20,000 nt of DNA from an uncultured virus (IMG/VR IMGVR_UViG_3300033141_001794). Taxonomy: Duplodnaviria; Heunggongvirae; Uroviricota; Caudoviricetes. Positions 1 through 19,547 of the stretch are shown here, piece by piece. A model generated the notes under the pieces. That model saw only the letters and a list, made by a program, of their open reading frames with translations, did not search any database and was not told where the DNA came from. The stretch lies in the IMG/VR virus record IMGVR_UViG_3300033141_001794, one strand, 5' to 3'. A program made the translations under genes and the position numbers. Every line of letters begins with the position of its first letter. The first letter of the stretch is position 1.

Positions 1-3000
1 AACATTTGTTATGAGCGCTGCGGTTATGGAATTGAAGCGCCTTGGCATTGCACAGAAGCCTCTTATTGTAGTTCCTAACCACATGATGAAGCAATTGCCA
101 CGGGAATTTTTAAGCATATACCCAAATGCTAACTTACTGGTATCGACAAAAACAGACCTAAACAAGAAGAACCGTAACCGGTTTATGAGCAAGATCGCAA
201 TGGGTAACTGGGATGGTGTTATCGTTCCTATGAGCAGTTTTGGCCTTCTTCCCATGAGTAAGAAAAGCCAAGCAGATTATATCGCCAGGGAGATAGACGA
301 TCTTGAAATAGCTATTCGACAAATGAAAGAGGAAGAGGGCGGGGGAAGGGATAATAAGCTCATCAAGCAAATAGAGGGTATGCGTAAAAGAATGGCCGAG
401 AAATACCAGGCATTGCTTGATAACCCGAAAGATGATACTGTTACCTTTGAAGAGCTTGGTATTGATTTTATGATGGTAGATGAGGCCCACAACTTTAAAA
501 ACCTTTTCTTTGCAACAAAGCAGGGGCGCATTGCAGGAGTATCAAACACAGCATCCAAAAGAGCAAGTGATCTGTTTATGAAAACCAGGTACTTGAATAA
601 GCTCAGACCCGGGCGAAACCTTGTTTTCTCCACAGGCACACCGATTGATAATACTATTGCAGAGATGTACACTATGCAGCGCTATCTCCAAATGGAATCT
701 TTGGAACAGACAGGCCTAACCCATTTTGACGCATGGACGAGCATGTTTGCAGAGCCTGTTACTGGCTGGGAGCTTTCCCCTGATGGAAAGCGAATGAGGG
801 AACATACCAGAATGAGAAGCTTTGTAAACCTCTTCCAGTTAAACCAGATGTTCAGGGAGGTTGCTGATGTTAAGGTTCAGAAGGATCTGAACTTAAAAGT
901 ACCGAAACAGAAAACCGGTGGACCACAGATAGTTGCAGCAAAAGCTTCTGAACATTTAAAGGTGTATGTTGATTCTATTATAGCGCGTATGGAGAACATG
1001 CCTCCGGATCCCCGCGAGGACAATTTTCTTAAAGCTACGAATGATGGGCGCAAGGCAGCGCTGGATATGAGGCTGATTGATCCGCACCTTCCAGATAACC
1101 CTGACAGCAAGATTAATAAAGCCATTGAAAACATATTTGATATTTGGAAAAAGACCAAAGCTGATAAGTCTACTCAGATTGTATTCTGTGATCTGTCCAC
1201 TCCTTCCAAAGAGAGAAGGAAGCTCAAAGAAGAGCTGGAAGAACGAGTGAAACAGGCAGAGGCAGAAGGACGCGAGCCAGATGTAACACAAGATGAGTGG
1301 CTTTCTCTTCAATCGAACTTCTCGGTATATGACGATGTAAGAGAAAAGCTTATTGAAATGGGTGTTCCCGAGAAAGAAATTGCTTTTATCCATGACTATA
1401 ACTCTGATGAGAAAAAGGCCAGCCTGTTTAAAAAGGTGAACGATGGCGATATCAGGGTGGTAATGGGATCTACTGCGAAAATGGGCGAAGGCACCAATAT
1501 GCAGGAACGGGCTTATGCTCTTCATCATTTGGATGCACCATGGAAACCAGGATCTATTAAGCAGCGCGATGGTCGTATTATCCGACAGGGTAACACCAAT
1601 GAGGAAGTAGAGACTTTCCGGTATGTGACCGAGCAGAGCTTTGATGCTTATTTGTGGCAGATTCTTGAAAACAAGGCACTTATGATAGAACAGGTGCTTA
1701 CCGATCCGACCAAGCAAAGGGTTGATGATGTTAGCATGGTGGCTCTTTCTGCAGCACAGGCAAAGGCAGCGGCAAGCGGGAATCCCCTTCAGATGGAAAA
1801 GGTCAAGGTTGATTCTGATGTGTCGAGACTTCAGGCTATGAAGAAGTATCATGACAGGGACCAATTCAGATATAAACGTGAAGCTAAAGAGCTACCGGAC
1901 CGGATTGCCATTAAAAAGAAGAAGGTTGCTGGTGTTGAAAAGGACCTGAAGAAGAGAACAGACACTCTTAAGGGTGATAAATTCAAAGCCATTATTGATG
2001 AAATAGAATATGATAAGCGTAGTGCTGCGGATTTGGCAATGGAAAAAATTGTCAAGAAGAGGCCTGGTCCCCAAGATGCACTTGGAAACATTGGTGGTTT
2101 TGATTTTACTATGAGATTTGATAAGCTTGACCCTACTTTGTTTGAATTTATTGTTAAAGGTGAAAATGATTACCCGACAGGATTTACAAAGACAGCTGCA
2201 GGAGGGTTGTCGAGAATGGTAAATGTTGTTTCCGGTTTAGAGGACCAGATTAAGACAGAGGAAAAAGGTATATCCAAGCTGGAAAGGGAACTTAATACCG
2301 TTAAAGAACAGGTTGGAAAGCCGTTTGATAAAGAGGAAGAGCTTACAAAGCTCGTTAAGCGCCAGGAGGAAGTCTTTAAGGAAATCCAGAACGAGGGACA
2401 GGAAGACACTGTTGAGGAAATTCTTGATGAAATGGGCGTTACTGACGTTGAAACCAAAGAGCCTGCAGTAGATGATACCGATGTAGGAATTAATGTTGAG
2501 GACTATAACTTCGACAAGAAAACTTACACTACTCCCCAGTGGGAAAAGAAGTATTATGGTAAGTATAAGGGTAATGATTTTGTAACCGATGGCACTCTTT
2601 TTTATCGGGACTACTGGGGCCTTACAGAGGCGTTCAAAGAAAGCGGGGAAGGCACAGAACTAACTCCAGAGAATCTTGAAAAGGCTATTCCGGAGCCTGT
2701 TGATAGAGAAGCGAAGCCTTTAAAGGTATATGCGCTTGATAAGAAGATAGACGCAGTTTTGTTTTATGATGGTGAAGCTTACAGGTCTATCGACAAAAAA
2801 CTATATAATACTATCCGTTTGCAATTCCCAGGCGCTACTTTTAAATTTGGACCAGAAGAACGCTCTCCAATTAGCTTTTATCGCGACGATGTGTTTGAGG
2901 GCGTAGTAATGCCCATACTCCCAAACGAAAACACTCGTGCCGTTATCAAAAACCTTGAATCAGACAAAGGTACCGGAGGCAAACAGCTCTATAGCATGAC

Positions 3001-6000
3001 CGAGAGTGAGGCCCGGGACAAGAAGCCAAAGACTCTTCCTGAAGAAACGGTCACTGATATAGTTAAATCCATGGGATCGCCAGAAGCTACCCGTAACCAG
3101 CTCTTAACCGAAGCTAACGCTAAAGAGGGGGAAAAGTTTTTAACGCGGTGGGAGCGTATCTATCAAGGCGCAAAAGACGCTACAGTATCAATCCGGAAGG
3201 TCCAGAAGATATTTGAAAAGGAATTGGGCGTAAAGGTAACTCCCATCAATGATATTGAATATGCCATTGATAGAGTGCGGGGATCCGGTGGAACTGCTAA
3301 ACAGTTTGTTGCTGATTGGCTCTCTCCTATATTTGAAGAGATAAGGAAATCCACAAAAGAGGTAAGGCTGCACCGAAAGGCTGGGCAAATTGGAAAGATA
3401 TCAAGGAACCTGGAACAATACCTGATAGCCAAGCGCCAGGTGTGGTTGTATGAGAACAAGCCGAAGTATGACGATGTTGGATATACGCAGGAATGGAGCC
3501 AGGGTGTTATCGATGATGTTGAAAGCGGAAAAACTCCGGATGCGGCATTGATACAGGCCAGTGCTAATAAGATATGGAACTATTCTGTTAAGCTGAAGGG
3601 TATTAAAAAATCATTTGGCATTATAGATGAAGAGTTTGAAAAGATGTTGAGAGAGCCTTATTACGTTCCATTCTTCAGGGATGTTGAGAAAAAGGTTGTC
3701 CCGGGGATCCGTGGGGAGAAGTTTACTGCAATGTCGAAGGGCATTAAAAGGATTAAGGGCTCGAAATCAGGCAGGAATATCAGGAATGTCTTTGCTAATC
3801 TTATTACCATTACCAATGAAACTCTGGTAAATGCAGCACGAAACGAGGTTTTTAACGGTATTATTAAAATGTCAGAGGAGTCTACTGAGATAGGCGAACT
3901 TATTAAAAAGCTTCCTCCGCGCTGGAAGGTAGCCGGGACCATAGAGCATAGACATGAAATCGATAAGTTTCTCTCTCCTGAATTGAGTAAGATTATTGAA
4001 GAGCTGGGCGCGAAAGAGGGCGTTAAAATAAAGATGGGGAAATATACCGGCTCTTTTAGCAGCGAGAATAAAGAAGTAATGACCATGTTCGGAGCGACTG
4101 AATCTACCAAAGCGCATGAATTAGGACATTTGATTGATCAGGATGTTATTCGTCTGCAGGATATGGTCCGGAAATATCCCAAAGAAATGGTAGCGGTTGG
4201 ATCCACCAGGTATGAAGGAGGGGAAGCAACCCAGTCTTATATAAGATATGTGCATAAGAACGAAGAGCTTGTTGCAGAATTCGTGTCTATGTACATTACT
4301 GACCGGACCAGGCTTGCAGAACTGGCGCCAGATGCTATAAGAGACTTTGAGGGTAGGATCCAGAAGCATAAGACGCTGAAGAAATTGATAAAGCTTTACC
4401 CGAGCAGGCGCAAAGCAATTGAGAAGATTACAGAAAAGAACTGGATTCTTGATACTTCCATACCCAGTGACGAGGACGTTATAAGCGGTTTTGTTGGTGG
4501 AAAGATGGAGCATTACAGGGTGCCGGCTGAACTTGCAAGTGCAGTTAAGAACCTTCATCCTGAACAGATCCCCATAGCGCTGCGAGTACTGACAATCCCT
4601 ACTTCTATATTAAGAAAGGGCGCGGTCCAGTTTAATGTTGACTTCTTTATTCCCAACTCCCTTAGAGATCAGATCGGTGCAACATTTACAAGAAAGTTTT
4701 ATCCTGTAGTCGATTATCTCGCAGGCCTGAAGCATTACATAGCACAGGACGAGGTATACAAGCAATATCTGAGAATGGGTGGTGCAATGGATTCTCCTGA
4801 ATCCGGTGTTGTACAATTACAGAGAAGCGCAAAGGAGCTGATCTACGGATCCAAGCGCGGTGAATTCTTTGACCCTCATTACTGGAAAGAAACTGGTTTA
4901 ATGCGGAAAACGCTGGATATAACGAGTTATTTTGCAAAGGCACCATTCAGGGCGATTGCTAAACTTGGAGAAGCTTCAGAGCAGGCTACAAGACTCGGTG
5001 TATTTGAGAGAGGGTTGAAAAGCGGGGAAAATGTTATGGCTGCAATTCATTCGGGCAGACAGGCTTCTTTAGAGTTCCAGCGGTTTGGAACACATGGGCG
5101 CGTACCTAATCAGATAGTTCCTTTTATAAATGTTGCGCTCGAGGGAGTGGATCGGGCGATCCGTTCGGCCTATGGGAACCCGAAACGGTTTGCCATGGCA
5201 GCATTTACCTATGGTATTGCCCCGACAATTGCACTTACTATATGGAATACTACTGGTGATGATGAAGACGAATATAAGAATGTCAGTGACAGGGACAAAG
5301 AAAATAATTACATTATAATGAGGCACGATGGTACCGGCCGTTATTGGAAAATACCGAAGTCCCATATAGTCAGAATGATAGCGAACCCTTTTCAATTAGC
5401 GTGGGAACGGTCTATAGGTACTTCAATGGGTAGCTGGCACGATCCGGCAAGTACTGTCTGGAGAGCTGCGAGCCCGATTGATGGACTGGGCGCTATTGTT
5501 CCAACAGGCTTGAAGCTGCTCATTGAACCTATTGCGAATTATGACTTCTATTGGCGACAGACTATTGAATCACACAACATGAGGGCAATAGGACAACCAG
5601 GCTTAAGAGCTGAAAAAGGTACTTCTGAAACTCTGAAGAAGATCGGAAAGGCGCTGAACATATCTCCTATAATGATGCAGCATGAGATTAATACATTGTT
5701 TTCAGGCTTGGGAAGACACACGCTGTTTGCAGTAGACTGGGCGCTGGGAAAGACCGGGATACAGCCAGAGACAGAAATAACAGAAAACCGAATACCGGTC
5801 CTGCGAAGATTCTTAGGGAAAGCAGAGGATTGGAAGGGTGAGGCTTCCCGGGCTGTACGTGATATCAACAAGGCAGTATCAGCAATAGATAGAATGTCTG
5901 TTAAGGGCCTGATGAAGTACAATAAGTACAAACCGGTCGAAGCGTTAAAGGTATATAGAGAAAACAAGGCAATGAAGGTGAAGTTGCTCAGAAGAAAGAT

Positions 6001-6124
6001 TGAACTGTTGAAAGCAACGAGAATTACCCAGGACCTCTATGATGAAATTCTGGCAGAAATACAGAAGGCGCAGGAAAAGAGTGCGAAGGCTGAAGATGTT
6101 GTAATTAAAGCTATGGAGGAGTAA
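1..6124 (+). CDS. Large polyvalent virion-type protein: DarB-like SNF2/SF2 helicase + zincin-like HExxH motif + LPD38-like C-terminal domain (5'-truncated)
   Basis: The frame is open from the window edge (..T-F-V-M, as expected just after a Walker A GKT). It contains VDEAHNFKN (motif II), STGTPIDN (III), MGEGTNMQ (V) and QRDGRIIRQGN (VI), plus AHELGH at 4112-4129 followed by EELVAE. The C-terminal KENNYII..YWKIPK and LLIEPIANYDFY segments resemble LPD38. Confidence 0.85.
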   Translation, partial: TFVMSAAVMELKRLGIAQKPLIVVPNHMMKQLPREFLSIYPNANLLVSTKTDLNKKNRNRFMSKIAMGNWDGVIVPMSSFGLLPMSKKSQADYIAREIDDLEIAIRQMKEEEGGGRDNKLIKQIEGMRKRMAEKYQALLDNPKDDTVTFEELGIDFMMVDEAHNFKNLFFATKQGRIAGVSNTASKRASDLFMKTRYLNKLRPGRNLVFSTGTPIDNTIAEMYTMQRYLQMESLEQTGLTHFDAWTSMFAEPVTGWELSPDGKRMREHTRMRSFVNLFQLNQMFREVADVKVQKDLNLKVPKQKTGGPQIVAAKASEHLKVYVDSIIARMENMPPDPREDNFLKATNDGRKAALDMRLIDPHLPDNPDSKINKAIENIFDIWKKTKADKSTQIVFCDLSTPSKERRKLKEELEERVKQAEAEGREPDVTQDEWLSLQSNFSVYDDVREKLIEMGVPEKEIAFIHDYNSDEKKASLFKKVNDGDIRVVMGSTAKMGEGTNMQERAYALHHLDAPWKPGSIKQRDGRIIRQGNTNEEVETFRYVTEQSFDAYLWQILENKALMIEQVLTDPTKQRVDDVSMVALSAAQAKAAASGNPLQMEKVKVDSDVSRLQAMKKYHDRDQFRYKREAKELPDRIAIKKKKVAGVEKDLKKRTDTLKGDKFKAIIDEIEYDKRSAADLAMEKIVKKRPGPQDALGNIGGFDFTMRFDKLDPTLFEFIVKGENDYPTGFTKTAAGGLSRMVNVVSGLEDQIKTEEKGISKLERELNTVKEQVGKPFDKEEELTKLVKRQEEVFKEIQNEGQEDTVEEILDEMGVTDVETKEPAVDDTDVGINVEDYNFDKKTYTTPQWEKKYYGKYKGNDFVTDGTLFYRDYWGLTEAFKESGEGTELTPENLEKAIPEPVDREAKPLKVYALDKKIDAVLFYDGEAYRSIDKKLYNTIRLQFPGATFKFGPEERSPISFYRDDVFEGVVMPILPNENTRAVIKNLESDKGTGGKQLYSMTESEARDKKPKTLPEETVTDIVKSMGSPEATRNQLLTEANAKEGEKFLTRWERIYQGAKDATVSIRKVQKIFEKELGVKVTPINDIEYAIDRVRGSGGTAKQFVADWLSPIFEEIRKSTKEVRLHRKAGQIGKISRNLEQYLIAKRQVWLYENKPKYDDVGYTQEWSQGVIDDVESGKTPDAALIQASANKIWNYSVKLKGIKKSFGIIDEEFEKMLREPYYVPFFRDVEKKVVPGIRGEKFTAMSKGIKRIKGSKSGRNIRNVFANLITITNETLVNAARNEVFNGIIKMSEESTEIGELIKKLPPRWKVAGTIEHRHEIDKFLSPELSKIIEELGAKEGVKIKMGKYTGSFSSENKEVMTMFGATESTKAHELGHLIDQDVIRLQDMVRKYPKEMVAVGSTRYEGGEATQSYIRYVHKNEELVAEFVSMYITDRTRLAELAPDAIRDFEGRIQKHKTLKKLIKLYPSRRKAIEKITEKNWILDTSIPSDEDVISGFVGGKMEHYRVPAELASAVKNLHPEQIPIALRVLTIPTSILRKGAVQFNVDFFIPNSLRDQIGATFTRKFYPVVDYLAGLKHYIAQDEVYKQYLRMGGAMDSPESGVVQLQRSAKELIYGSKRGEFFDPHYWKETGLMRKTLDITSYFAKAPFRAIAKLGEASEQATRLGVFERGLKSGENVMAAIHSGRQASLEFQRFGTHGRVPNQIVPFINVALEGVDRAIRSAYGNPKRFAMAAFTYGIAPTIALTIWNTTGDDEDEYKNVSDRDKENNYIIMRHDGTGRYWKIPKSHIVRMIANPFQLAWERSIGTSMGSWHDPASTVWRAASPIDGLGAIVPTGLKLLIEPIANYDFYWRQTIESHNMRAIGQPGLRAEKGTSETLKKIGKALNISPIMMQHEINTLFSGLGRHTLFAVDWALGKTGIQPETEITENRIPVLRRFLGKAEDWKGEASRAVRDINKAVSAIDRMSVKGLMKYNKYKPVEALKVYRENKAMKVKLLRRKIELLKATRITQDLYDEILAEIQKAQEKSAKAEDVVIKAMEE

Positions 6125-10641: not shown

Positions 10642-10872
10642 ATGGCAGACTCGTTAGGCATTACACTCAAGAAGGAACTGTTAATCGACATGGCCAAAGC
10701 TCGCAGCGGGGAGATATTGCCCTGCACAGCTCGGAAGACTTTAGACAATTGTTTCACAACCAGTCCAGAAGGCGTTTTATTTCTTTGGTATGTTGAAGCG
10801 GAATCCAAAACCACTCGCCTTATAAGCGAGAATACTGATATTAACGAGTATTTAACAAAGGAGGCACAATGA
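10642..10872 (+). CDS. Hypothetical protein
   Basis: AAGGAG RBS; overlaps the erf start. Confidence 0.7.
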   Translation: MADSLGITLKKELLIDMAKARSGEILPCTARKTLDNCFTTSPEGVLFLWYVEAESKTTRLISENTDINEYLTKEAQ

Positions 10873-11612
10873 TGAAAAAAGACCTGGTTCCTCAGAACGA
10901 GCAGGCACCAGTAACCGCAGTTAATTCACCAGCTGACATAATGCAGTTAGCTATGAACAAGGACCTTGATCTGGACCGCATTGAGAAGATGCTTGAACTC
11001 CAGACCAAGTATGAAGAGCGTGAGGCAAAGAAGGCCTATACACAGGCCATGGCTAACTTTAAAGCCAATCCTCCGGAAATATCCAAGGATAAGAATGTCC
11101 AATATCAAACTTCAAAGGGACAGACAAATTATAGCCATGCTACCCTTGGGAATGTAACCCAGAAGATTAACCAAGCTCTTGCCGGTCACGATCTTTCTGC
11201 AGGGTGGAAAACAGAGCAGGATAAGGATAATATCACAATTACCTGTACAATAACTCATGCTCTTGGACATAGCGAAAGCACTTCCCTGTCGGCTGGTGCT
11301 GACACTTCTGGAGGGAAAAACAGTATCCAGGCCGTAGGGTCCACAATCACATATCTGGAAAGATATACTCTTCTTGCCCTCACCGGTCTTGCTACCCATG
11401 ATCAGGACGATGATGGCCGGGGAAGTGAAGGTGAAGGCCTTGTTTATATCACAGACAATCAGAAGTCTACTATTGTGGATATGATTGCAGACACTTCGGC
11501 CAATGAAGCAAGGTTCTTAAAATATCTCGGTGCAGAATCGATTGATACTATTCCGGCCACATTTTATAACAGGGCTATTAAGGCATTGGAAGTTAAAAAG
11601 GAGCAGGCATGA
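10869..11612 (+). CDS. erf: Erf-family single-strand annealing protein
   Basis: Erf signature CTITHALGHSES...KNSIQAVGSTITYLERYTLLALTGLA...DDDG; AAGGAGG RBS. Confidence 0.9.
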   Translation: MMKKDLVPQNEQAPVTAVNSPADIMQLAMNKDLDLDRIEKMLELQTKYEEREAKKAYTQAMANFKANPPEISKDKNVQYQTSKGQTNYSHATLGNVTQKINQALAGHDLSAGWKTEQDKDNITITCTITHALGHSESTSLSAGADTSGGKNSIQAVGSTITYLERYTLLALTGLATHDQDDDGRGSEGEGLVYITDNQKSTIVDMIADTSANEARFLKYLGAESIDTIPATFYNRAIKALEVKKEQA

Positions 11613-12214
11613 TAATCGTAGAAGGAATTAAGCAAAACAGTCTGGAATGGTACGCTCTTAAGCTCGGCATTCCCAGTGCTTCCAGCTTTGACAAGATAAT
11701 TACAACCAAGGGAGTTGTATCAAAGACGCGAGCGAAGTATCTGTATAAACTGGCTGGCGAGGTTGTAACTGGTGAGCGTGAGGAGGGATATAACAATTCC
11801 AATATGGATCGAGGCCATGAGCGCGAAGAAGAGTCCAGAAATGCCTATGAGCTCATTAAAGATGTTGAGGTGGAACAGGTAGGCTTTGTCTATTTTGATG
11901 AAAAGAAAGACATTGGCTGTTCTCCTGATGGCCTTGTGGGTGAAGATGGAGGATTCGAGACAAAGGACGCTCTTCCTCATGTTCATCTTGATCGATTAGA
12001 GAATGGCTGGTCAGAGTCACAGCATTTTCAGCAGGTCCAGGGAAGTCTTTATGTTACTGGCCGGAAGTGGTGGGACCTTGTAAGTTATTCCAGAGGGTTC
12101 AAGCCTTTAATCATCAGGTTTGAACGTGACGAGGAGTTTATTAAGAAGTTAGCTGTTGAACTCCGCTTATTCAATAACAACTTAAAAGATGTCGTTAAAA
12201 AGTATTCTGTATAG
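11609..12214 (+). CDS. YqaJ/lambda-exonuclease-family nuclease
   Basis: QNSLEW..LKLGIPSAS, MDRGHERE, CSPDGLV, FETK and QVQG motifs; ATGA-coupled to erf. Confidence 0.9.
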   Translation: MIIVEGIKQNSLEWYALKLGIPSASSFDKIITTKGVVSKTRAKYLYKLAGEVVTGEREEGYNNSNMDRGHEREEESRNAYELIKDVEVEQVGFVYFDEKKDIGCSPDGLVGEDGGFETKDALPHVHLDRLENGWSESQHFQQVQGSLYVTGRKWWDLVSYSRGFKPLIIRFERDEEFIKKLAVELRLFNNNLKDVVKKYSV

Positions 12215-13525: not shown

Positions 13526-13603
13526 AAAGAATGTGAGTGCGTATAGCGACTTGTTGTATGACATTATGAGAATCTTTAAATTGTAAAAAGGAGGTTTTGC
13601 TAT

Positions 13604-13912
13604 ATGGAATACCAAATAGTAGTTGAAAGTGACCCGTTTAGAATGGCAGAGTGCGTAAATGATATGTGTAAAGATGGGTGGATGCCGGTAGGTTCGCACC
13701 ACGTTGCTTTTGAGCCTGGTCAAATATGGTATTACTCACAAGCGGTAGTCCGCAAAACTCCTAACACTAAGGAAGCTTTACAAAACGACACACAACAACT
13801 ACAGGCTAAAATTGCCGATTGTGCATTGGTGATTGAAAATAGTGAAAAGGGGCTTGGAAGTATCACGAAAGGTGCAATTGCACACAGGCTTCGGCAACTA
13901 TCAGCCGTGTAG
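13604..13912 (+). CDS. Cassette 1: DUF1737-like protein
   Basis: MEYQIV...VNDMCKDGWMPVG...YSQAVV pattern; AAGGAGG RBS; the stop lies in the hairpin right arm. Confidence 0.6.
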   Translation: MEYQIVVESDPFRMAECVNDMCKDGWMPVGSHHVAFEPGQIWYYSQAVVRKTPNTKEALQNDTQQLQAKIADCALVIENSEKGLGSITKGAIAHRLRQLSAV

Positions 13913-13923
13913 GAACGTTGTCG
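13787..13923 (+). repeat. attC-like site S1
   Basis: CAAC-AA-CTACA-GGCT-AAAA-TTGCCGA ... TCGGCAA-CTATC-AGCC-[G]-TGTAG-GAAC-GTTG. Confidence 0.8.
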
Positions 13924-13987
13924 ATCAATCCCGCTGGGGTTGGGCAGCACGATTTTAATTGTAGTTTAACGAATTGGAGGCTAAATT

Positions 13988-14284
13988 ATGGGAGTATCGG
14001 GTAAAAGTGTAAAGAAGTTTTCAGAAGGAAATTTAGCTATTACAAATGGCGTTCATTTAGACAGCGACTATAAACATGTTTTTTTTGACATAACTGAATG
14101 TGATGATAAGAAGGTTAAGCTAAAAAGTCACTGGAATAGTACTGAGTTTAATTGTGTAATAGAAACTGATACTTTTGGCGAACATACAACAATTAAACAG
14201 ACTTCTGAGGTAGAAAAATTTCTTTTTCATATAAAGTCAAAAAAATTTAAGGTAAGACCGATGAAAGGTGACAGGATTGGATAA
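13988..14284 (+). CDS. Cassette 2: hypothetical protein
   Basis: GGAGG RBS, ATG start. Confidence 0.65.
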   Translation: MGVSGKSVKKFSEGNLAITNGVHLDSDYKHVFFDITECDDKKVKLKSHWNSTEFNCVIETDTFGEHTTIKQTSEVEKFLFHIKSKKFKVRPMKGDRIG

Positions 14285-14428
14285 CAATTCGTTAAAGGAA
14301 AAAGCAAATTGAACGTCACAATGGAAAAAATAACCAGCGGGCACGCGGATGTTAAACACCGCTTTAATCGACAACGCCCTCTTACAAACCGATTGAGAGC
14401 TTGTCTAATGTCCACTCCAGCCGGACAG

Positions 14429-14503
14429 CCGACAACAATCTTAGGGGAAAATATCAGGACGAAAAGAAGCCCTGACACGTTCCCCCGTAAGAGGGCGTTG
14501 CAG
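14429..14503 (+). repeat. attC-like site S2
   Basis: CAAC-AA-TCTTA-GGGGAA-AATA-TCAGG ... CCTGA-CACG-TTCCCC-[CG]-TAAGA-GGGC-GTTG. Confidence 0.75.
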
Positions 14504-14564
14504 GAAATTAAACCGCTAAGAGCATAATTGTAGTTTGGCTCATTAGCAGAAAAGGATTGTAAAA

Positions 14565-14873
14565 ATGGAAATTGATTACGGAAATGGAAAAACTAAATAT
14601 GGGCCTGGTGTGCAAATAGAATTAAGCGGCGGCGAGGTGGCAATTGCAATAGACACATATTTAACAGCACACAATGTATATATATCCGGCCCCAGAACTA
14701 TTACAGTAAACAATGAGCTGTGTAAAATTGGGAGTGTCTATGTTGATCCATCTGGGTTTGCAATTGCTAATGGTATAAAATATAGTGGTAGAGGTTCAAG
14801 CCTTCGCCAAAAGAGAATTAAGGAAAACGCGGTTGAACATCCTGCAACACCGAAAGGCCAAAATGACAAGTAA
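14565..14873 (+). CDS. Cassette 3: hypothetical protein
   Basis: AAAGGA RBS; the stop lies in the S3 loop. Confidence 0.7.
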   Translation: MEIDYGNGKTKYGPGVQIELSGGEVAIAIDTYLTAHNVYISGPRTITVNNELCKIGSVYVDPSGFAIANGIKYSGRGSSLRQKRIKENAVEHPATPKGQNDK

Positions 14874-14899
14874 CTTCGGCCATTCCGGGAACGTTGTCG
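14840..14899 (+). repeat. attC-like site S3 (shortest)
   Basis: CAAC-A-CCGAAA-GGCC ... GGCC-[A]-TTCCGG-GAAC-GTTG. Confidence 0.75.
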
Positions 14900-14944
14900 G
14901 AAATACCGAATCGATTGTAAATTGGGTGATAAACGGAGGTTAAA

Positions 14945-15220
14945 ATGCAATTTTTAGACAAGTTGGGGTGGCCTGTTGAAAGAGTAAAGGGCAGGCCGGT
15001 GTTAAATTTTTTGCGGTTGTTAATTCACACCCGTAAAATTAAGCGGGGCAAGTTTGTTTACAAGCAGGAACCATCACCCAATGTAACTTGTGGAAATTCG
15101 GAACATACCGACAACAAGACACAGCCTAAAACTTCGGCTTTTGGTGATGCGGTTCGTAAACATGCCGAAAAAGAAGGAATTGATTTGGATGTTAAGCCTA
15201 AACAAATTTACGGTGGGTAG
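14945..15220 (+). CDS. Cassette 4: hypothetical basic protein
   Basis: GGAGGT RBS; the stop lies in the S4 loop. Confidence 0.65.
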   Translation: MQFLDKLGWPVERVKGRPVLNFLRLLIHTRKIKRGKFVYKQEPSPNVTCGNSEHTDNKTQPKTSAFGDAVRKHAEKEGIDLDVKPKQIYGG

Positions 15221-15252
15221 CCTTCGCATCAGGCGTGTGCAAGACGTTGGAG
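15108..15252 (+). repeat. attC-like site S4
   Basis: CAAC-AAGA-CACA-GCCT ... AGGC-[G]-TGTG-CAAGAC-GTTG. Confidence 0.7.
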
Positions 15253-15282
15253 TAAATTTTTTCTTTTGAGATTGGAGTTTTT

Positions 15283-15519
15283 ATGCGTGATAATGATATT
15301 GAAAGGTTAGACTATCACCTTAGTCGTAAAGAGTTTAAATCGCTCCGTTTTGTGTGGGATCGCATAAAAAAGGCTTTAAGCGGAAGCGAAAAAACTCCCA
15401 CCAACAACGACAGCCCAAAATTGCATTGTCCTAAGTGTGGCGCAACCGACAATATAGCACAATCGACAGAGGGGCATAAGTATCATTGTTTTAGGTGTGA
15501 TAATTACTGGAAAAAATAA
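15283..15519 (+). CDS. Cassette 5: protein with a C-terminal zinc ribbon
   Basis: GGAG RBS; CPKCG...CFRC. Confidence 0.7.
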   Translation: MRDNDIERLDYHLSRKEFKSLRFVWDRIKKALSGSEKTPTNNDSPKLHCPKCGATDNIAQSTEGHKYHCFRCDNYWKK

Positions 15520-15550
15520 TGCAACTGTCGGGCGTGTCTTGACGTTGTGA
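15399..15550 (+). repeat. attC-like site S5
   Basis: CAAC-AAC-GACA-GCCC-AAAA-TTGCATT ... AATGCAA-CTGTC-GGGC-[G]-TGTC-TTGAC-GTTG. Confidence 0.8.
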
Positions 15551-15583
15551 CGAAATTAATCCTTTAGAATATTGGAGTTGCGA

Positions 15584-15835
15584 ATGAAATTAAAAGAAGC
15601 TATGAAAACAATCGGGAGTTTGGTATCTGGTTGCGGTTATTCAAAGGATGTTGATGCGTATAATGTCATTCGCAAAGCATTAGAGGAAGCGGATGAACTG
15701 TCGCACAACACCGCCAGGGATGCCATCGCTTTCGTTGAACAGGTAAAAGGGTGTAGTAAGCGGGTGGCCGGTTCGAACAAAGTATTAGTTGCATTAATCA
15801 ATCAGGCTGCGGTCATAGCGCAACGGCACCCATAG
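15584..15835 (+). CDS. Cassette 6: hypothetical protein
   Basis: The GGAG RBS favours ATG 15584 over TTG 15572; the stop lies in the S6 right arm. Confidence 0.65.
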   Translation: MKLKEAMKTIGSLVSGCGYSKDVDAYNVIRKALEEADELSHNTARDAIAFVEQVKGCSKRVAGSNKVLVALINQAAVIAQRHP

Positions 15836-15850
15836 CGTAATCCGTTGTTT
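15703..15850 (+). repeat. attC-like site S6
   Basis: CAAC-AC-CGCCA-GGG-[A]-TGCC ... GGCA-CCC-[A]-TAGCG-TAATCC-GTTG. Confidence 0.75.
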
Positions 15851-15894
15851 TCAATTAACCGCCGATTATAGGTCGGCAGAAAGAAAGGTAACAG

Positions 15895-16437
15895 ATGGAT
15901 GATAAACAAACGTTAGTGGAGTCCGGCAAGCAGTTGACGGCAACTTTGCCAAATGATACGATGCGTATTATGAGCATTGCTATTGAAACCTTAGCCGTGG
16001 CAAGGGATAATTTAAAGAAACGTCTTGGCAACTGTAATGTTTCACAAATGGTTGCAGAAAGTGACGATAGATATTCTGCGATATTAACAGAACCTAATGG
16101 TAAAAAACATTTCTGGAAAAAGGACGGTTCTTATGATGGTAACGATAAGGAGTGCTCTGACGACATTTATAAGGAAGCGGTTAACACTGCGGAATTGAAA
16201 AACCAGATTATAGGGGTTATTAACCAGGCCGACAATCTAACAATTAAACAGATGCACGCAAATGTTGACAATATTTTCAATTCCTTGCCCTCACGGGAAA
16301 AACAACAAACGCAGCCTGCAATTAAGTTACTACAGGAGTTTTTGGAAGTTTACCAGTCGTGCGGAATATCAAGTGAATTAGCAAACTTTGCTGACAAGGT
16401 ACATAGTTTCGTAACTGAACAGCAGGCGGGTGCGTAA
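15895..16437 (+). CDS. Cassette 7: hypothetical protein
   Basis: AAAGGT RBS; the stop lies in the S7 right arm. Confidence 0.7.
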   Translation: MDDKQTLVESGKQLTATLPNDTMRIMSIAIETLAVARDNLKKRLGNCNVSQMVAESDDRYSAILTEPNGKKHFWKKDGSYDGNDKECSDDIYKEAVNTAELKNQIIGVINQADNLTIKQMHANVDNIFNSLPSREKQQTQPAIKLLQEFLEVYQSCGISSELANFADKVHSFVTEQQAGA

Positions 16438-16447
16438 TCCGTTGTCC
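16299..16447 (+). repeat. attC-like site S7
   Basis: CAAC-AA-ACGCA-GCCTGC..AGTTAC ... GTAACT..GCAGGC-[GGG]-TGCGT-AATCC-GTTG. Confidence 0.75.
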
Positions 16448-16474
16448 AAAATATTTAAAATTGGAGTGTTGTAA

Positions 16475-16726
16475 ATGGAAAATTTAACAAGGTATTGTTT
16501 ATTAAAAGGGGCGTTTGATGGATGTTCTTGCAAAATCGTTGAGGTAGACGATGGTGATTATACCAAATTTTCCGACATTAAGGATATTTTAAACAAATCG
16601 GACAACAAAGCTATGGACGCAATTATCGACAAAGTAGACGAATATATCAATAGCCATTGGGAGAGCGAAATGGTTGTTGAACGGCTTCGTTCTTTTGCTG
16701 CCTGGTGTCGACAACAGCGCCAGTAG
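16475..16726 (+). CDS. Cassette 8: hypothetical protein
   Basis: GGAG RBS; the stop lies in the S8 right arm. Confidence 0.7.
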   Translation: MENLTRYCLLKGAFDGCSCKIVEVDDGDYTKFSDIKDILNKSDNKAMDAIIDKVDEYINSHWESEMVVERLRSFAAWCRQQRQ

Positions 16727-16739
16727 CTAAACGTTGTAT
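16600..16739 (+). repeat. attC-like site S8
   Basis: CAAC-AA-AGCTA-TGG-[A]-CGC..TCGACA ... TGTCGA..GCG-CCA-[G]-TAGCT-AAAC-GTTG. Confidence 0.8.
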
Positions 16740-16770
16740 GCAATAAATTTTTTCAAAAAGGAGTTGTATA

Positions 16771-17091
16771 ATGGCCGAAAAATTATTACCATGTCCGTTT
16801 TGCGGGAAAAATCCAAAGGTTTTAGCAAGAGGTTCAATCATGTGTAGTAATGACAGTTGTTCGGCAGGCCCAATGGCTATGATGTCAATGTTTGCTTCTA
16901 AAAAGGCGTGTGTAAAAGGCTGGAATCATCGGCCACAAATTAAGGAAGAAAAAATTGACAACACACAACACACAAAGGCTACAATTGCTTTGGAGGACGT
17001 GGGTAAAATTTTAAAAAGTTATCCACGTGAAATTAACCCAAATTTTGCCGCAAACCTTATTGTTGAAATGGAAAAAAAGGCGCAACAATAG
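16771..17091 (+). CDS. Cassette 9: Lar-like (restriction alleviation family) zinc-binding protein
   Basis: LLPCPFCG...CSNDSC...KKACVKGWNHRP matches the Lar-family pattern; AAGGAG RBS. Confidence 0.7.
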   Translation: MAEKLLPCPFCGKNPKVLARGSIMCSNDSCSAGPMAMMSMFASKKACVKGWNHRPQIKEEKIDNTQHTKATIALEDVGKILKSYPREINPNFAANLIVEMEKKAQQ

Positions 17092-17111
17092 CCCTTTGCT
17101 GTACGTTGCAC
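16962..17111 (+). repeat. attC-like site S9
   Basis: CAAC-ACA-CAAA-GGCTA-CAA-TTGC ... GCAA-CAA-TAGCC-[C]-TTTG-CTGTAC-GTTG. Confidence 0.75.
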
Positions 17112-17150
17112 AAAATTAAACCGCTAAGAGCAGAATTGTAGTTTGGCAAA

Positions 17151-17408: not shown

Positions 17409-17954
17409 GTGAATGAGAAATTTGTAGACATACCAGGATGGAAAGGGCTTTATCAGATTTCTAATTTAGGTAGAGTTAAAAGTTTAGCAAGACCTCTTTT
17501 TAATGGGGCGGGATATTTTAAATCAAAGGAACAAATATTAAAAACAAGCAAAAATATTAATGGTTATCTATCTTTACGTTTGTGCGGGAGCGGGGAACGC
17601 TACAAGGTAGATGTTAGTAGGTTAATGAAATTGGCATTTTTTAACAATTCAAAGCTGGAAATAGACCACATAAACGGAGACAAAACAGATAATCGGTTAG
17701 ACAATCTTAGGCTTTGTACTCATTCACAAAATCATTTTAATATCAAAAAGGCGGGAAGGTGTTCTTCTCGGTTTAAGGGTGTTTATTTTATAAAAAAAAC
17801 CAATAGGTGGTGTGCAAGAATAACGGTGAAAGGTAAAACTTATAGACTCGGCAATTTTTGTACAGAAGAAGACGCAGCAAAAGCCTATGATGTTGAAGCC
17901 AAAAAGCGTTGTGGAGGATTTGCTGTACTAAATTTAAGCTCCGAAAAATCGTGA
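17409..17954 (+). CDS. NUMOD4-HNH-AP2 homing endonuclease
   Basis: DIPGWKGLYQISNLGRVKSL (NUMOD4); IDHINGDKTDNRLDNL (HNH); SRFKGVY..WCARI..LGNF.TEEDAAKAYD (AP2). Confidence 0.9.
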   Translation: MNEKFVDIPGWKGLYQISNLGRVKSLARPLFNGAGYFKSKEQILKTSKNINGYLSLRLCGSGERYKVDVSRLMKLAFFNNSKLEIDHINGDKTDNRLDNLRLCTHSQNHFNIKKAGRCSSRFKGVYFIKKTNRWCARITVKGKTYRLGNFCTEEDAAKAYDVEAKKRCGGFAVLNLSSEKS

Positions 17955-18561: not shown

Positions 18562-19212
18562 ATGGCCCTAAGAGATCAACCCTATATTCCTCTTTATGTA
18601 CAGGACTTTTTAACAGACGAAAAGCTTAACGAGTGTAGTGCAGAAGCAGTTGGAGTATATATAAAAATTATGTGTGTTATGCACAAATCTAAAGAGTATG
18701 GTGTTATTTTGTTAAAGCAAAAAGACAAGCAAAAGGATAAGCAAATAACTAATTTTGCTTTAAAGCTTGATAGTCATATGTCTTTTAAGGTTGCTGTTAT
18801 TGAAAGCGCTCTTGGTGAATTAATAGAGGAAGAGGTTTTAAGGGTAGATGGTGATAGGTTAATACAAAAAAGGATGGTAAGCGACAATGATATAAGCACT
18901 AAGCGTTCTTTGGCTGGTAAAAAGGGAGGGAAAAAAACACAATTTGCTAAAGCAAACTATGAAGCAAACTCTGAAAATGAATATGTAATTGAAAGTGCAA
19001 ATAAAAAAGATATAAAAAAAGCTCTTATAGAAAAACTTAAAAAAGAACTTCAAAACTTAAGCACAATAAATCCTGAAGTAATAGGAGGAGAGTTAAGTGA
19101 TAATTTAAACCTTCCTTTTTATGGATGGGAAAGCTTTTTAGCAAATACTCCTGTAGATGATTTAGAACTTGCTCTTAACTTTTTAGTCAGTTATGATACG
19201 GAGAAGGTATGA
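18562..19212 (+). CDS. Putative replication initiator / replisome organiser with a YdaU/DUF1376-like N-terminus
   Basis: PYIPLYVQDFLTD..CSAEAVGVYIKIMC.MH; LIQKRMV; RSLAGKKGG. Confidence 0.7.
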   Translation: MALRDQPYIPLYVQDFLTDEKLNECSAEAVGVYIKIMCVMHKSKEYGVILLKQKDKQKDKQITNFALKLDSHMSFKVAVIESALGELIEEEVLRVDGDRLIQKRMVSDNDISTKRSLAGKKGGKKTQFAKANYEANSENEYVIESANKKDIKKALIEKLKKELQNLSTINPEVIGGELSDNLNLPFYGWESFLANTPVDDLELALNFLVSYDTEKV

Positions 19213-19547
19213 ACCAGATAAGATTTTCCCATAATTGGAATGATAAATTAGATAGAAGATATTTTACTACTATCAGAAGTCATAGCGATAAAAAATACAA
19301 TTATTATCATGCGGGTATTGGTGGTGTTTTTTATGTGTATTTAAAAGGAGAGATATATTGTGAAGCCGAGTTGTTAGATGTGAGAGGTCTTCTTTATTAT
19401 GATATTCTTTATTCAACGCTATTACTTGATACAGGTATAGAGGATGCAGAAAAAATAGACAATCTGTTTAAAAGGTTTAAAATAAGCGGTGCGGATGAAG
19501 TTATTATTTTAACATTTAAACGAATAATAAAGGAATTACCATTCTAA
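19209..19547 (+). CDS. Possible ASCH/PUA-like domain protein
   Basis: IRFSHNW..KL...FTTIR N-terminal pattern; ATGA coupling. Confidence 0.5.
   Translation: MNQIRFSHNWNDKLDRRYFTTIRSHSDKKYNYYHAGIGGVFYVYLKGEIYCEAELLDVRGLLYYDILYSTLLLDTGIEDAEKIDNLFKRFKISGADEVIILTFKRIIKELPF

Follow-up and report, generated by a model that had tools for sequence, protein, structure and literature searches.

A probable integron-like cassette array in the genome of an uncultured tailed phage

Layout of the array

The window analysed here, a stretch of 20,000 nucleotides (nt) from the uncultured virus of IMG/VR record IMGVR_UViG_3300033141_001794 (Caudoviricetes), carries a phage-like gene set that includes a row of small + strand genes, and our subject is the division of this row into hairpin-bounded units, here called cassettes. 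Ten GTTG sites (G at 13553, 13917, 14497, 14893, 15246, 15544, 15844, 16441, 16733 and 17105) bound nine co-oriented units between positions 13553 and 17108. The motif is extended to CGTTG at nine of the ten sites and reads TGTTG at the remaining one, site 0. CGTTG itself is concentrated here on the + strand, with 12 occurrences in 13541–17111 versus three in the remaining 16.4 kilobases (kb). Each of the nine units has a CAAC 48–142 nt 5' of its own GTTG, and the resulting hairpin sites are 52–143 nt long. In minimum-energy DNA folds, CAAC is paired with GTTG across the intervening 120–145 nt in units 1, 2, 5, 7, 8 and 9, with an inner helix beyond a short unpaired spacer. In all, nine hairpin sites stand within a 3.6-kb stretch, and the window has no integrase gene. 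The features of the array are as follows (ORF, open reading frame; aa, amino acids).

13540..13556, + strand: site 0, an attI-like entry site (CGTATAG-N6-GTTG) without a left arm; the first cassette begins inside or just after its GTTG
13553..13920, + strand: cassette 1; ORF 13604–13912, 102 aa; hairpin 13793–13920
13917..14500, + strand: cassette 2; ORF 13988–14284, 98 aa; hairpin 14372–14500, past the ORF
14497..14896, + strand: cassette 3; ORF 14565–14873, 102 aa; short hairpin 14845–14896, 52 nt
14893..15249, + strand: cassette 4; ORF 14945–15220, 91 aa; hairpin 15112–15249
15246..15547, + strand: cassette 5; ORF 15283–15519, 78 aa, zinc-ribbon-like; hairpin 15402/15405–15547
15544..15847, + strand: cassette 6; ORF 15572–15835, 87 aa; hairpin 15706–15847
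15844..16444, + strand: cassette 7; ORF 15895–16437, 180 aa; hairpin 16303–16444
16441..16736, + strand: cassette 8; ORF 16475–16726, 83 aa; hairpin 16603–16736
16733..17108, + strand: cassette 9; ORF 16771–17091, 106 aa; hairpin 16966–17108, the last site of the array

No CAAC occurs within 170 nt upstream of site 0. At the other end, there is no GCAAC 3' of 17105 and hence nothing to serve as a tenth left arm pairing with the flank of site 9; the array therefore ends at this site. The hairpin of cassette 2 contains a perfect 14-base-pair stem (an inverted repeat; fold of -35.0 kcal/mol), while a 21-nt inverted repeat links the flank of site 7 with the left arm of cassette 8.

With respect to cargo, only the Lar-like restriction alleviation protein of cassette 9 (domain at residues 3–54; PF14354, 29.7 versus a cut-off of 28.6; also matched by phrog_599) exceeds a Pfam cut-off. 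The ORF of cassette 1, whose TAG stop lies 7 nt 5' of GTTG, has a weak match to DUF1737 (residues 3–50). Both the Lar domain and the DUF1737 match stop just ahead of the left arm.

Flank complementarity and natural variants

The first-pass annotation of this window had claimed that the left arms match the right flank of the previous site in nine of nine units. Because the counts behind that claim include a 4-base-pair core pairing that is available with any site, scoring was confined to the 5 nt beyond the invariant CAAC/GTTG core, with the arms kept as first annotated. The flank of the previous site matched the left arm at 32 of 45 positions (3, 5, 5, 4, 2, 2, 4, 4 and 3 in units 1–9), compared with 12 of 45 for the unit's own flank (2, 1, 3, 1, 1, 1, 1, 2 and 0). 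Permuting the partners (200,000 draws) gave a mean of 15.7 and a maximum of 30, and none of the draws reached 32. The previous site was the best or tied-best partner in eight of the nine units (the exception being unit 6) and the unique best in three; its match was at least 4/5 in five units, 3/5 in two and 2/5 in two. As a whole, then, the flank rule is real, and it is individually convincing in units 2, 3, 4, 7 and 8. The nine-of-nine claim stands for the array overall but not unit by unit, since four units are unconvincing alone. The accompanying statement that each left arm pairs only 4–5 contiguous bases with its own right flank is borne out, with 0–1 contiguous matches beyond the core.

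Units were also circularised in silico and folded with ten candidate flanks each. The cassette's own 5' flank gave the lowest fold in seven of nine units, and the difference between circular and array folding energies ranged from -0.3 to -6.7 kcal/mol per unit (gains of 6.4 and 6.7 kcal/mol in cassettes 3 and 4), for a total of -34.2 kcal/mol that was equalled in 0 of 100,000 permutations.

Flank complementarity by itself does not locate the crossover. An exchange at the left-arm CAAC fits equally, as it also keeps the right flank of one site and the left flank of the next in a single mobile unit, and natural variants were therefore sought. Two viral contigs share the window's backbone, one (L001) at 99.3% identity over 7.4 kb and 100% over 2.3 kb, the other (L002) at 99.98% over 10.3 kb. 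CheckV rates the 10-kb relatives as 15% complete. L001 departs from the window directly past the GTTGTA of site 0 and rejoins it at the ACGTTG of site 8, carrying one different 273-nt cassette in place of window cassettes 1–8; the left arm of this alternative cassette, TCTTACAAC, is the exact 9-nt complement of its own start, GTTGTAAGA. L002 departs directly past the GTTGT of site 6. At the site 8 join, the upstream hairpins of L001 and the window differ while the downstream sequence is identical, which places the exchange point in the right arm, a few bases from GTTG. All three junctions break at or within ACGTTG(T), at a resolution of a few bases rather than of a phosphodiester bond. The proposed crossover at the right-arm GTT(G) is thus supported, though its placement comes from the breakpoints of L001 and L002 and not from the flanks alone.

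Because an all-versus-all blastn of 50 cassettes found none common to different contigs, the one cassette that can be compared behind different neighbours is cassette 9, which occurs in both the window and L001. Its first bases (TATGCAAT...) are unchanged behind two different neighbours, so that in this case a cassette does keep its start whatever stands before it. These near-identical genomes provide direct comparative evidence of cassette turnover at GTTG.

Related arrays, hairpin anatomy and a candidate enzyme

Sites of this kind were looked for elsewhere with a covariance model. A MAFFT alignment of the window's own sites had left the arms too poorly aligned for a model, and an arm-energy scanner ranked six of the nine true sites at the top (scoring cassette 6 at -9.2 kcal/mol) but was insensitive and strand-symmetric; the covariance model was used instead. 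A 17-letter pattern from the right arm of unit 1 retrieved 18 stretches in viral contigs, 14 of them with GTTG, GTTA or ATTG a few bases on (including the window's own site on a near-identical contig, L040), and the model, R1, was built from 12 of these stretches plus unit 1. Within the window R1 has hits on the + strand only and nowhere but in the array, where it recovers seven of the nine sites: units 1 (109.5 bits, but this site is one of the model's seeds), 3 (39.1), 4 (34.8), 5 (41.7), 7 (14.0, E 0.18), 8 (21.3) and 9 (32.5). It misses units 2 and 6 (for unit 2 there is no hit at E of 1 or below) and does not match site 0. Beyond the window, R1 identified about 70 distinct further sites, with arrays on 12 other viral contigs (L011, L017, L026/27, L029, L031, L032, L035, L036, L037, L038, L041 and L042), two of which, L026/27 and L038, come from complete jumbo genomes (213 and 253 kb) bounded by terminal repeats. 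R1 found no site in ten array-less loci whose one link with the window is the ERF gene.

The flank rule extends to these arrays. Among neighbouring sites no more than 450 nt apart, the previous flank matched at 4/5 or better in 20 of 29 pairs, the unit's own flank in one of 29. After removal of repeated combinations the previous flank still did so in 11 of 20, and the observed sum was reached by 0 of 100,000 permutations. Among farther neighbours the figure was 0 of 23, presumably because intervening sites were missed. The 5-nt R-box words recur from a limited set, e.g. TAAGA, TACGC, TAGGC, GTTGC and TGCGC.

Aligned, the sites share a consistent anatomy. The R box consists of 5 variable nt plus CAAC paired with GTTG plus 5 variable nt; CAAC and GTTG are kept in 63 of 78 distinct rows, and an inner L box covaries. 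Of the 63 sites keeping both, which include a few reverse-strand echoes, 53 have one A as left spacer and 54 have a right spacer of 4–5 nt, most commonly AAAC. A single unpaired base bulges from the right arm of the L box in 47 (G in 34, A in 11); the left arm is bulge-free in 55. The extra unpaired bases therefore lie in the crossover-bearing arm, and the strand-specific asymmetry is strong. Over the 78 rows, 95.4% of stem cells are paired, with 306 double changes versus 67.6 in shuffles and at most 55 with slid partners, and a covariation score of 0.506 versus at most 0.051 in controls, figures that come from an alignment fitted to the R1 structure and favouring it for that reason. One-sided changes of the G-U type number about 15 in 1508 paired cells, a near-absence that would be expected of a DNA duplex and not of an RNA helix.

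The hairpins are largely coding. A stop codon falls within 40 nt 5' of GTTG at 59 of the 69 sites with an upstream open frame, and a typical cassette encodes about 40 residues ahead of CAAC and about 40 within the hairpin. CAAC stands in frame 0, 1 and 2 at 35, 28 and 6 sites, respectively, so that what is conserved is DNA and not protein. A homologue search with a hairpin-encoded tail returned four proteins only. Terminator-like sites number two in 4.6 kb versus 3.7 expected, neither of them at a hairpin end. The absence of terminators at the hairpins, their position inside ORFs and the scarcity of G-U changes all agree with the first-pass view that these are not plain terminators or RNA stems.

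Some features of the cassettes themselves may be noted. Many cassette ORFs are about 80 aa long, with 37–42 residues ahead of CAAC (in L026, L037, L041 and the window), which hints at a preferred cassette size or at a common origin of many cassettes. In the other arrays, 30 of 31 ORFs of at least 100 aa have no Pfam match at E of 1e-4 or below. Two sites of one array (L041 7685–7708 and 8339–8362) are followed by the same 24 nt (GTTGTAGGCCATTTGGACAAGTCT), which suggests a duplicated cassette; the contig ends 26 nt on. One cassette protein (L029 7763–8017) is named by one source as a hypothetical protein of a Deltaproteobacteria genome bin, and its contig is classed as a provirus. The name may point to the host of that relative, but does not bear on the host of the window's phage.

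Directly upstream of two of the related arrays, and on the same strand, lies a recombinase gene.

L041 4769–5665, same strand as the array: Xer-like tyrosine recombinase, 298 aa (P0001)
L029 5877–6683, same strand as the array: Xer-like tyrosine recombinase, 268 aa

The two proteins are 43% identical. Their best matches are XerA and XerC. P0001, the one of the two run against the family and structure libraries, is matched best among NCBIfam profiles by archaeal XerA (174.8 bits versus a cut-off of 220), and the solved structures closest to it are those of Xer proteins. Against the integron-integrase profile TIGR02249 P0001 reaches 114.1 bits versus a cut-off of 265, split in two stretches, with about 60 profile positions opposite about 12 residues (207–220) of the protein. 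The gap in this alignment probably corresponds to the I2 region of IntI. Relatives in cultured phages all fall below 32% identity, an alignment of the recombinases (A4) searched against viral contigs recovered only its two source contigs, and tblastn against plasmids gave no clear IntI match.

A motif, CGTATAR-N6-GTTG, heads the arrays of the window, L029, L041 and L031. As CGTATAA-N6-GTTG it lies 7 and 38 nt past the recombinase stop codons in L029 and L041, respectively. The first cassette agrees with the motif's flank at 3/5 positions in the window, 5/6 in L029, 5/5 in L041 and 4/5 in L031. In 549 kb of partly redundant loci, searched on both strands, there are seven distinct matches to the motif versus about three expected, and four of the seven are array heads. 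The motif at site 0 is no known attI sequence, and no integrase stands beside it in the window.

Around the array, the window contains the following genes.

11–6124: polyvalent protein, 2037 aa, with SNF2 helicase and LPD38 domains
10869–11612: ERF recombinase, 1.3 kb upstream of the array, together with the YqaJ exonuclease
11609–12214: YqaJ exonuclease
17409–17954: HNH/NUMOD4/AP2 homing-type endonuclease, 300 nt past the last site
18562–19212: replisome-organiser, weak match

The polyvalent gene extends past the left end of the window. A megablast of the whole window against cultured phages gave no match and an Rfam search of it nothing above chance; the ORF at 19209–19547 had no relative among viral contigs, and a 276-aa protein queried against metagenomes found distant relatives only. 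One repeat deserves separate mention. The 44 nt after site 2 (14496–14539) and after site 9 (17104–17147) are 93% identical (GTTGCA..AAATTAAACCGCTAAGAGCA.AATTGTAGTTTGGC), the former copy being the start of cassette 3 and the latter post-array backbone, with unrelated genes behind them; a shorter AATTGTAGTTT stands after site 1 too. This repeat may be a shared promoter or leader, or the trace of a cassette made from backbone.

Interpretation and comparison with known systems

We regard it as probable that positions 13540–17108 are an integron-like cassette array, situated in the early/recombination region of the phage and moved by a tyrosine recombinase that is itself likely to be Xer/XerA-like. 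The proposed array would consist of the entry site CGTATAG-N6-GTTG followed by nine co-oriented one-gene cassettes, each ending in an imperfect hairpin. The recombinase would cut in or beside the right-arm GTTG of the folded single strand, and cassettes would be excised as circles and inserted either at the attI-like site or at a further hairpin. The bases just past GTTG would then travel with the following cassette; on that account the left arm complements its own cassette's 5' flank, and the 9-base-pair R box would be complete only in the circle. Circular excision and insertion in the manner of integron cassettes, as first suggested for this window, is also the best reading of the whole-cassette swaps at GTTG in L001 and L002. 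The site anatomy, the flank rule, the stem covariation and the cassette-level genome differences are observed, and from them we infer the circular intermediate, the single-strand substrate and the identity of the enzyme. This enzyme is most likely a short Xer/XerA-like recombinase such as those whose genes precede the attI-like motif directly in two of the related arrays, and is probably not an integron integrase. As the window has no such gene, the enzyme would have to be encoded in another part of the genome or be supplied in trans, perhaps by a co-infecting phage. Ribosomes that translate the hairpin might keep it from blocking the expression of downstream cassettes, an idea that we offer as a suggestion.

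Several observations weigh against this interpretation, most of them concerning the enzyme. Neither a tyrosine recombinase nor any other site-specific recombinase was found in the scanned ORFs of the window (Pfam, PHROGs), and none was found in L001 or L002 either. A PF00589 match occurs in only two of ten array-bearing records, and neither a PF00589 match nor one to the recombinase alignment turned up in the two complete jumbo genomes or in a third genome that is 92% complete. Enzyme-less arrays are thus the majority here, and the link between enzyme and sites rests on adjacency in two contigs (L029, L041). Within the window, the flank rule is weak in units 1 and 9 and not visible in units 5 and 6. 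To these may be added the fitting of the covariation alignment to R1, mentioned above, and the activity of IntI1 on phage attC sites, discussed next.

The units might instead form a bacterial-type attC cluster lacking an integrase (a CALIN), picked up by a phage and serviced by the IntI of its host, with nothing phage-specific about it. Architecture and boundary logic are indeed of the integron type, the window has no recombinase of its own and, according to the accessible text of Qi and colleagues (2023; PMC9892861), who describe 17 phage CALINs, IntI1 recombines five of six phage attC sites. In that same text, however, P12002L_attC1 is the single tested site of the six without verified IntI1 recombinants, and it is also the only site that R1 finds in Polaribacter phage P12002L (15.9 bits, E 0.011); R1 finds none in Tetrasphaera phage TJE1. 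Of the classical GTTRRRY core only GTTG is kept, and the recombinases beside the two related arrays fall far below the TIGR02249 cut-off, score better as XerA and are co-directional with the cassettes. A 21-mer of the commonest site on viral contigs is absent from 185,579 prokaryote species, each represented by one genome, a weak piece of evidence since only exact matches count. On balance we consider a bacterial cluster unlikely. An IS200/IS605-type transposase of the HUH (Y1) class, moving the units as single-strand circles, seems to us the most improbable agent of all. This family acts on single-strand hairpins and makes circular intermediates, and an IS200-like Y1 transposase gene does lie inside one array (L032 5075–5464, - strand; PF01797, E 2.8e-35). 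Against such an agent, there is no Y1_Tnp match in the window, one of 31 array ORFs of at least 100 aa is of the Y1 family, each unit has a single hairpin rather than a left-end/right-end pair, and the L032 gene may itself be an insertion. The L032 array may attract an IS200-like Y1 element, hairpins being the target of that family.

Homologous recombination between the repeated hairpins, driven by the upstream ERF and YqaJ proteins, would resemble the promoter/stem-loop (PeSL) shuffling of T4-type phages with its mini-circles. The two genes are close at hand, and both PeSL shuffling and encapsidated mini-circles have been published for phi1 and RB49, as far as the accessible accounts go. Yet the window's sites share little past CGTTG and CAAC, too short a stretch for homologous exchange, which would neither keep a left arm complementary to its own 5' flank nor be expected to put all breakpoints at GTTG. 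Moreover, the sites lie inside reading frames and have no promoter-plus-terminator pair. We think this explanation very unlikely. Slightly less credence still is due to the view that the hairpins act only as RNA (in termination, processing or translational coupling) or encode a C-terminal protein domain, the flank matches being a side effect. All sites do lie on the coding strand, where they would be transcribed and translated up to stops that mostly precede GTTG closely, and their asymmetry is strand-specific, as an RNA-only role would allow. But G-U type one-sided changes are nearly absent, there are no T-run terminators at the sites and no Rfam match, the motif is read in differing frames, the outer stem joins two neighbouring units and closes only on circularisation, and genomes differ by whole units at GTTG.

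The integron-like array that we favour shares with integrons a putative entry site followed by co-oriented single-gene cassettes that end in imperfect palindromes, in which outer AAC/GTT boxes and an inner L box enclose a variable loop (by fold and covariation). Classical attC sites are about 57–141 nt long, close to the range seen here. Also as in integrons, the crossover maps to the right-hand GTT, the first bases of a cassette complement its own inverse core and the cargo is mostly of unknown function. On the other hand, there is no IntI here, and the enzyme of the relatives is a Xer/XerA-like protein of 268–298 aa that scores below the IntI cut-off and is encoded co-directionally and directly upstream. 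The R box has GTTG plus 5 variable nt rather than GTTRRRY. The left spacer is 1 nt and the right 4–5 nt, and the purine bulge is in the crossover-bearing right arm, whereas in classical attC sites the extrahelical bases are in the opposite arm. The hairpin is nearly always within a reading frame, and the sites occur on phage contigs and, as judged by one exact 21-mer, are absent from cellular genomes. In classical integrons the crossover falls between the first and second base of GTTRRRY (as reviewed), a finer placement than the few-base resolution available here. What is known, then, is the integron boundary logic; the departures from the classical system concern the enzyme and entry site, where the unpaired bases lie, and hairpins that are coding.

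Clusters of attC sites in phages have already been published. According to the accessible text of Qi and colleagues (2023; PMC9892861), a screen of 10,705 phage genomes yielded 17 clusters of attC sites unaccompanied by an integrase, among them those of Tetrasphaera phage TJE1, Polaribacter phage P12002L and Pseudoalteromonas phage PH101. Like the array described here, these are attC-type hairpin clusters between small genes in phage genomes without IntI; there they are treated as bacterial integron parts carried by phages. In that text Xer is mentioned zero times and no phage recombinase is described; neither an attI-like motif nor variation in cassettes from one phage genome to another came to our notice there. 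In TJE1 the genes follow the order seen in the window (ERF, exonuclease, small ORFs, HNH endonuclease, replication protein; L053 41112–46277). P12002L_attC1 (L052 30000–30064) has an L box of the same kind (GGCTAAA.CGG / CCGTTTAGCC) and a long-versus-short spacer asymmetry; its orientation relative to the neighbouring methyltransferase genes is opposite to that of the window's sites.

The nearest phage precedent for unit-wise shuffling is the PeSL cassettes of T4-type phages, in which, from what is accessible of the reports, small non-essential genes lie between repeated stem-loops, genomes differ by whole units and small circles occur (PMC2839356; PMC4122927). Those repeats, however, are intergenic, combine promoter and terminator and exchange by homology, while the window's sites are intragenic and lack such a signature, have few bases in common and bear the mark of site-specific exchange, namely complementarity on circularisation. 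Xer-type tyrosine recombinases are also known to move gene modules or to act on a folded single-strand hairpin. CTX phage has a folded single-strand attP and is Xer-dependent. The pdif modules of Acinetobacter plasmids are Xer-dependent mobile gene modules (PMC7399989, in its accessible part). Unlike the system proposed here, both use host XerC/XerD and dif-like 28-base-pair sites, and neither has arrays of dozens of hairpin-bounded one-gene cassettes in which a dedicated recombinase gene adjoins the entry site. A full-text literature search found no paper on a phage recombinase-plus-hairpin cassette system.

A broader proposition follows, for which we put the chances at about even: that phages run their own counterpart of the integron, with a short Xer-like enzyme that lacks the domain credited with enabling integron integrases to act on folded single strands, a CGTATAR-N6-GTTG entry site right behind the enzyme's gene, hairpins within the 3' half of each cassette gene, a shared cassette pool and servicing in trans. 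If true, the pool would circulate among unrelated phages, from 40-kb siphovirus-like to 250-kb jumbo genomes, and most arrays, the window's included, would encode no enzyme and would depend on one supplied in trans during co-infection. The recurrent C-terminal peptide of small phage proteins (e.g. L029 ...QQLKAEIAAL...LRQLSAV) would be a translated recombination site and not a protein domain. Recombination of single-strand hairpins would have arisen, or would persist, outside the IntI lineage. The bearing on the evolution of integron recombination comes from the candidate enzyme, which appears to lack the region that is held to be the key innovation of IntI (PMC7790495, in the part accessible). 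Material for testing these ideas is at hand in the defined entry site, the array's nine natural sites and the candidate enzyme, and the system would give a testable mechanism for the gain and loss of small accessory genes in phages one at a time, including genes for restriction alleviation of the Lar type.

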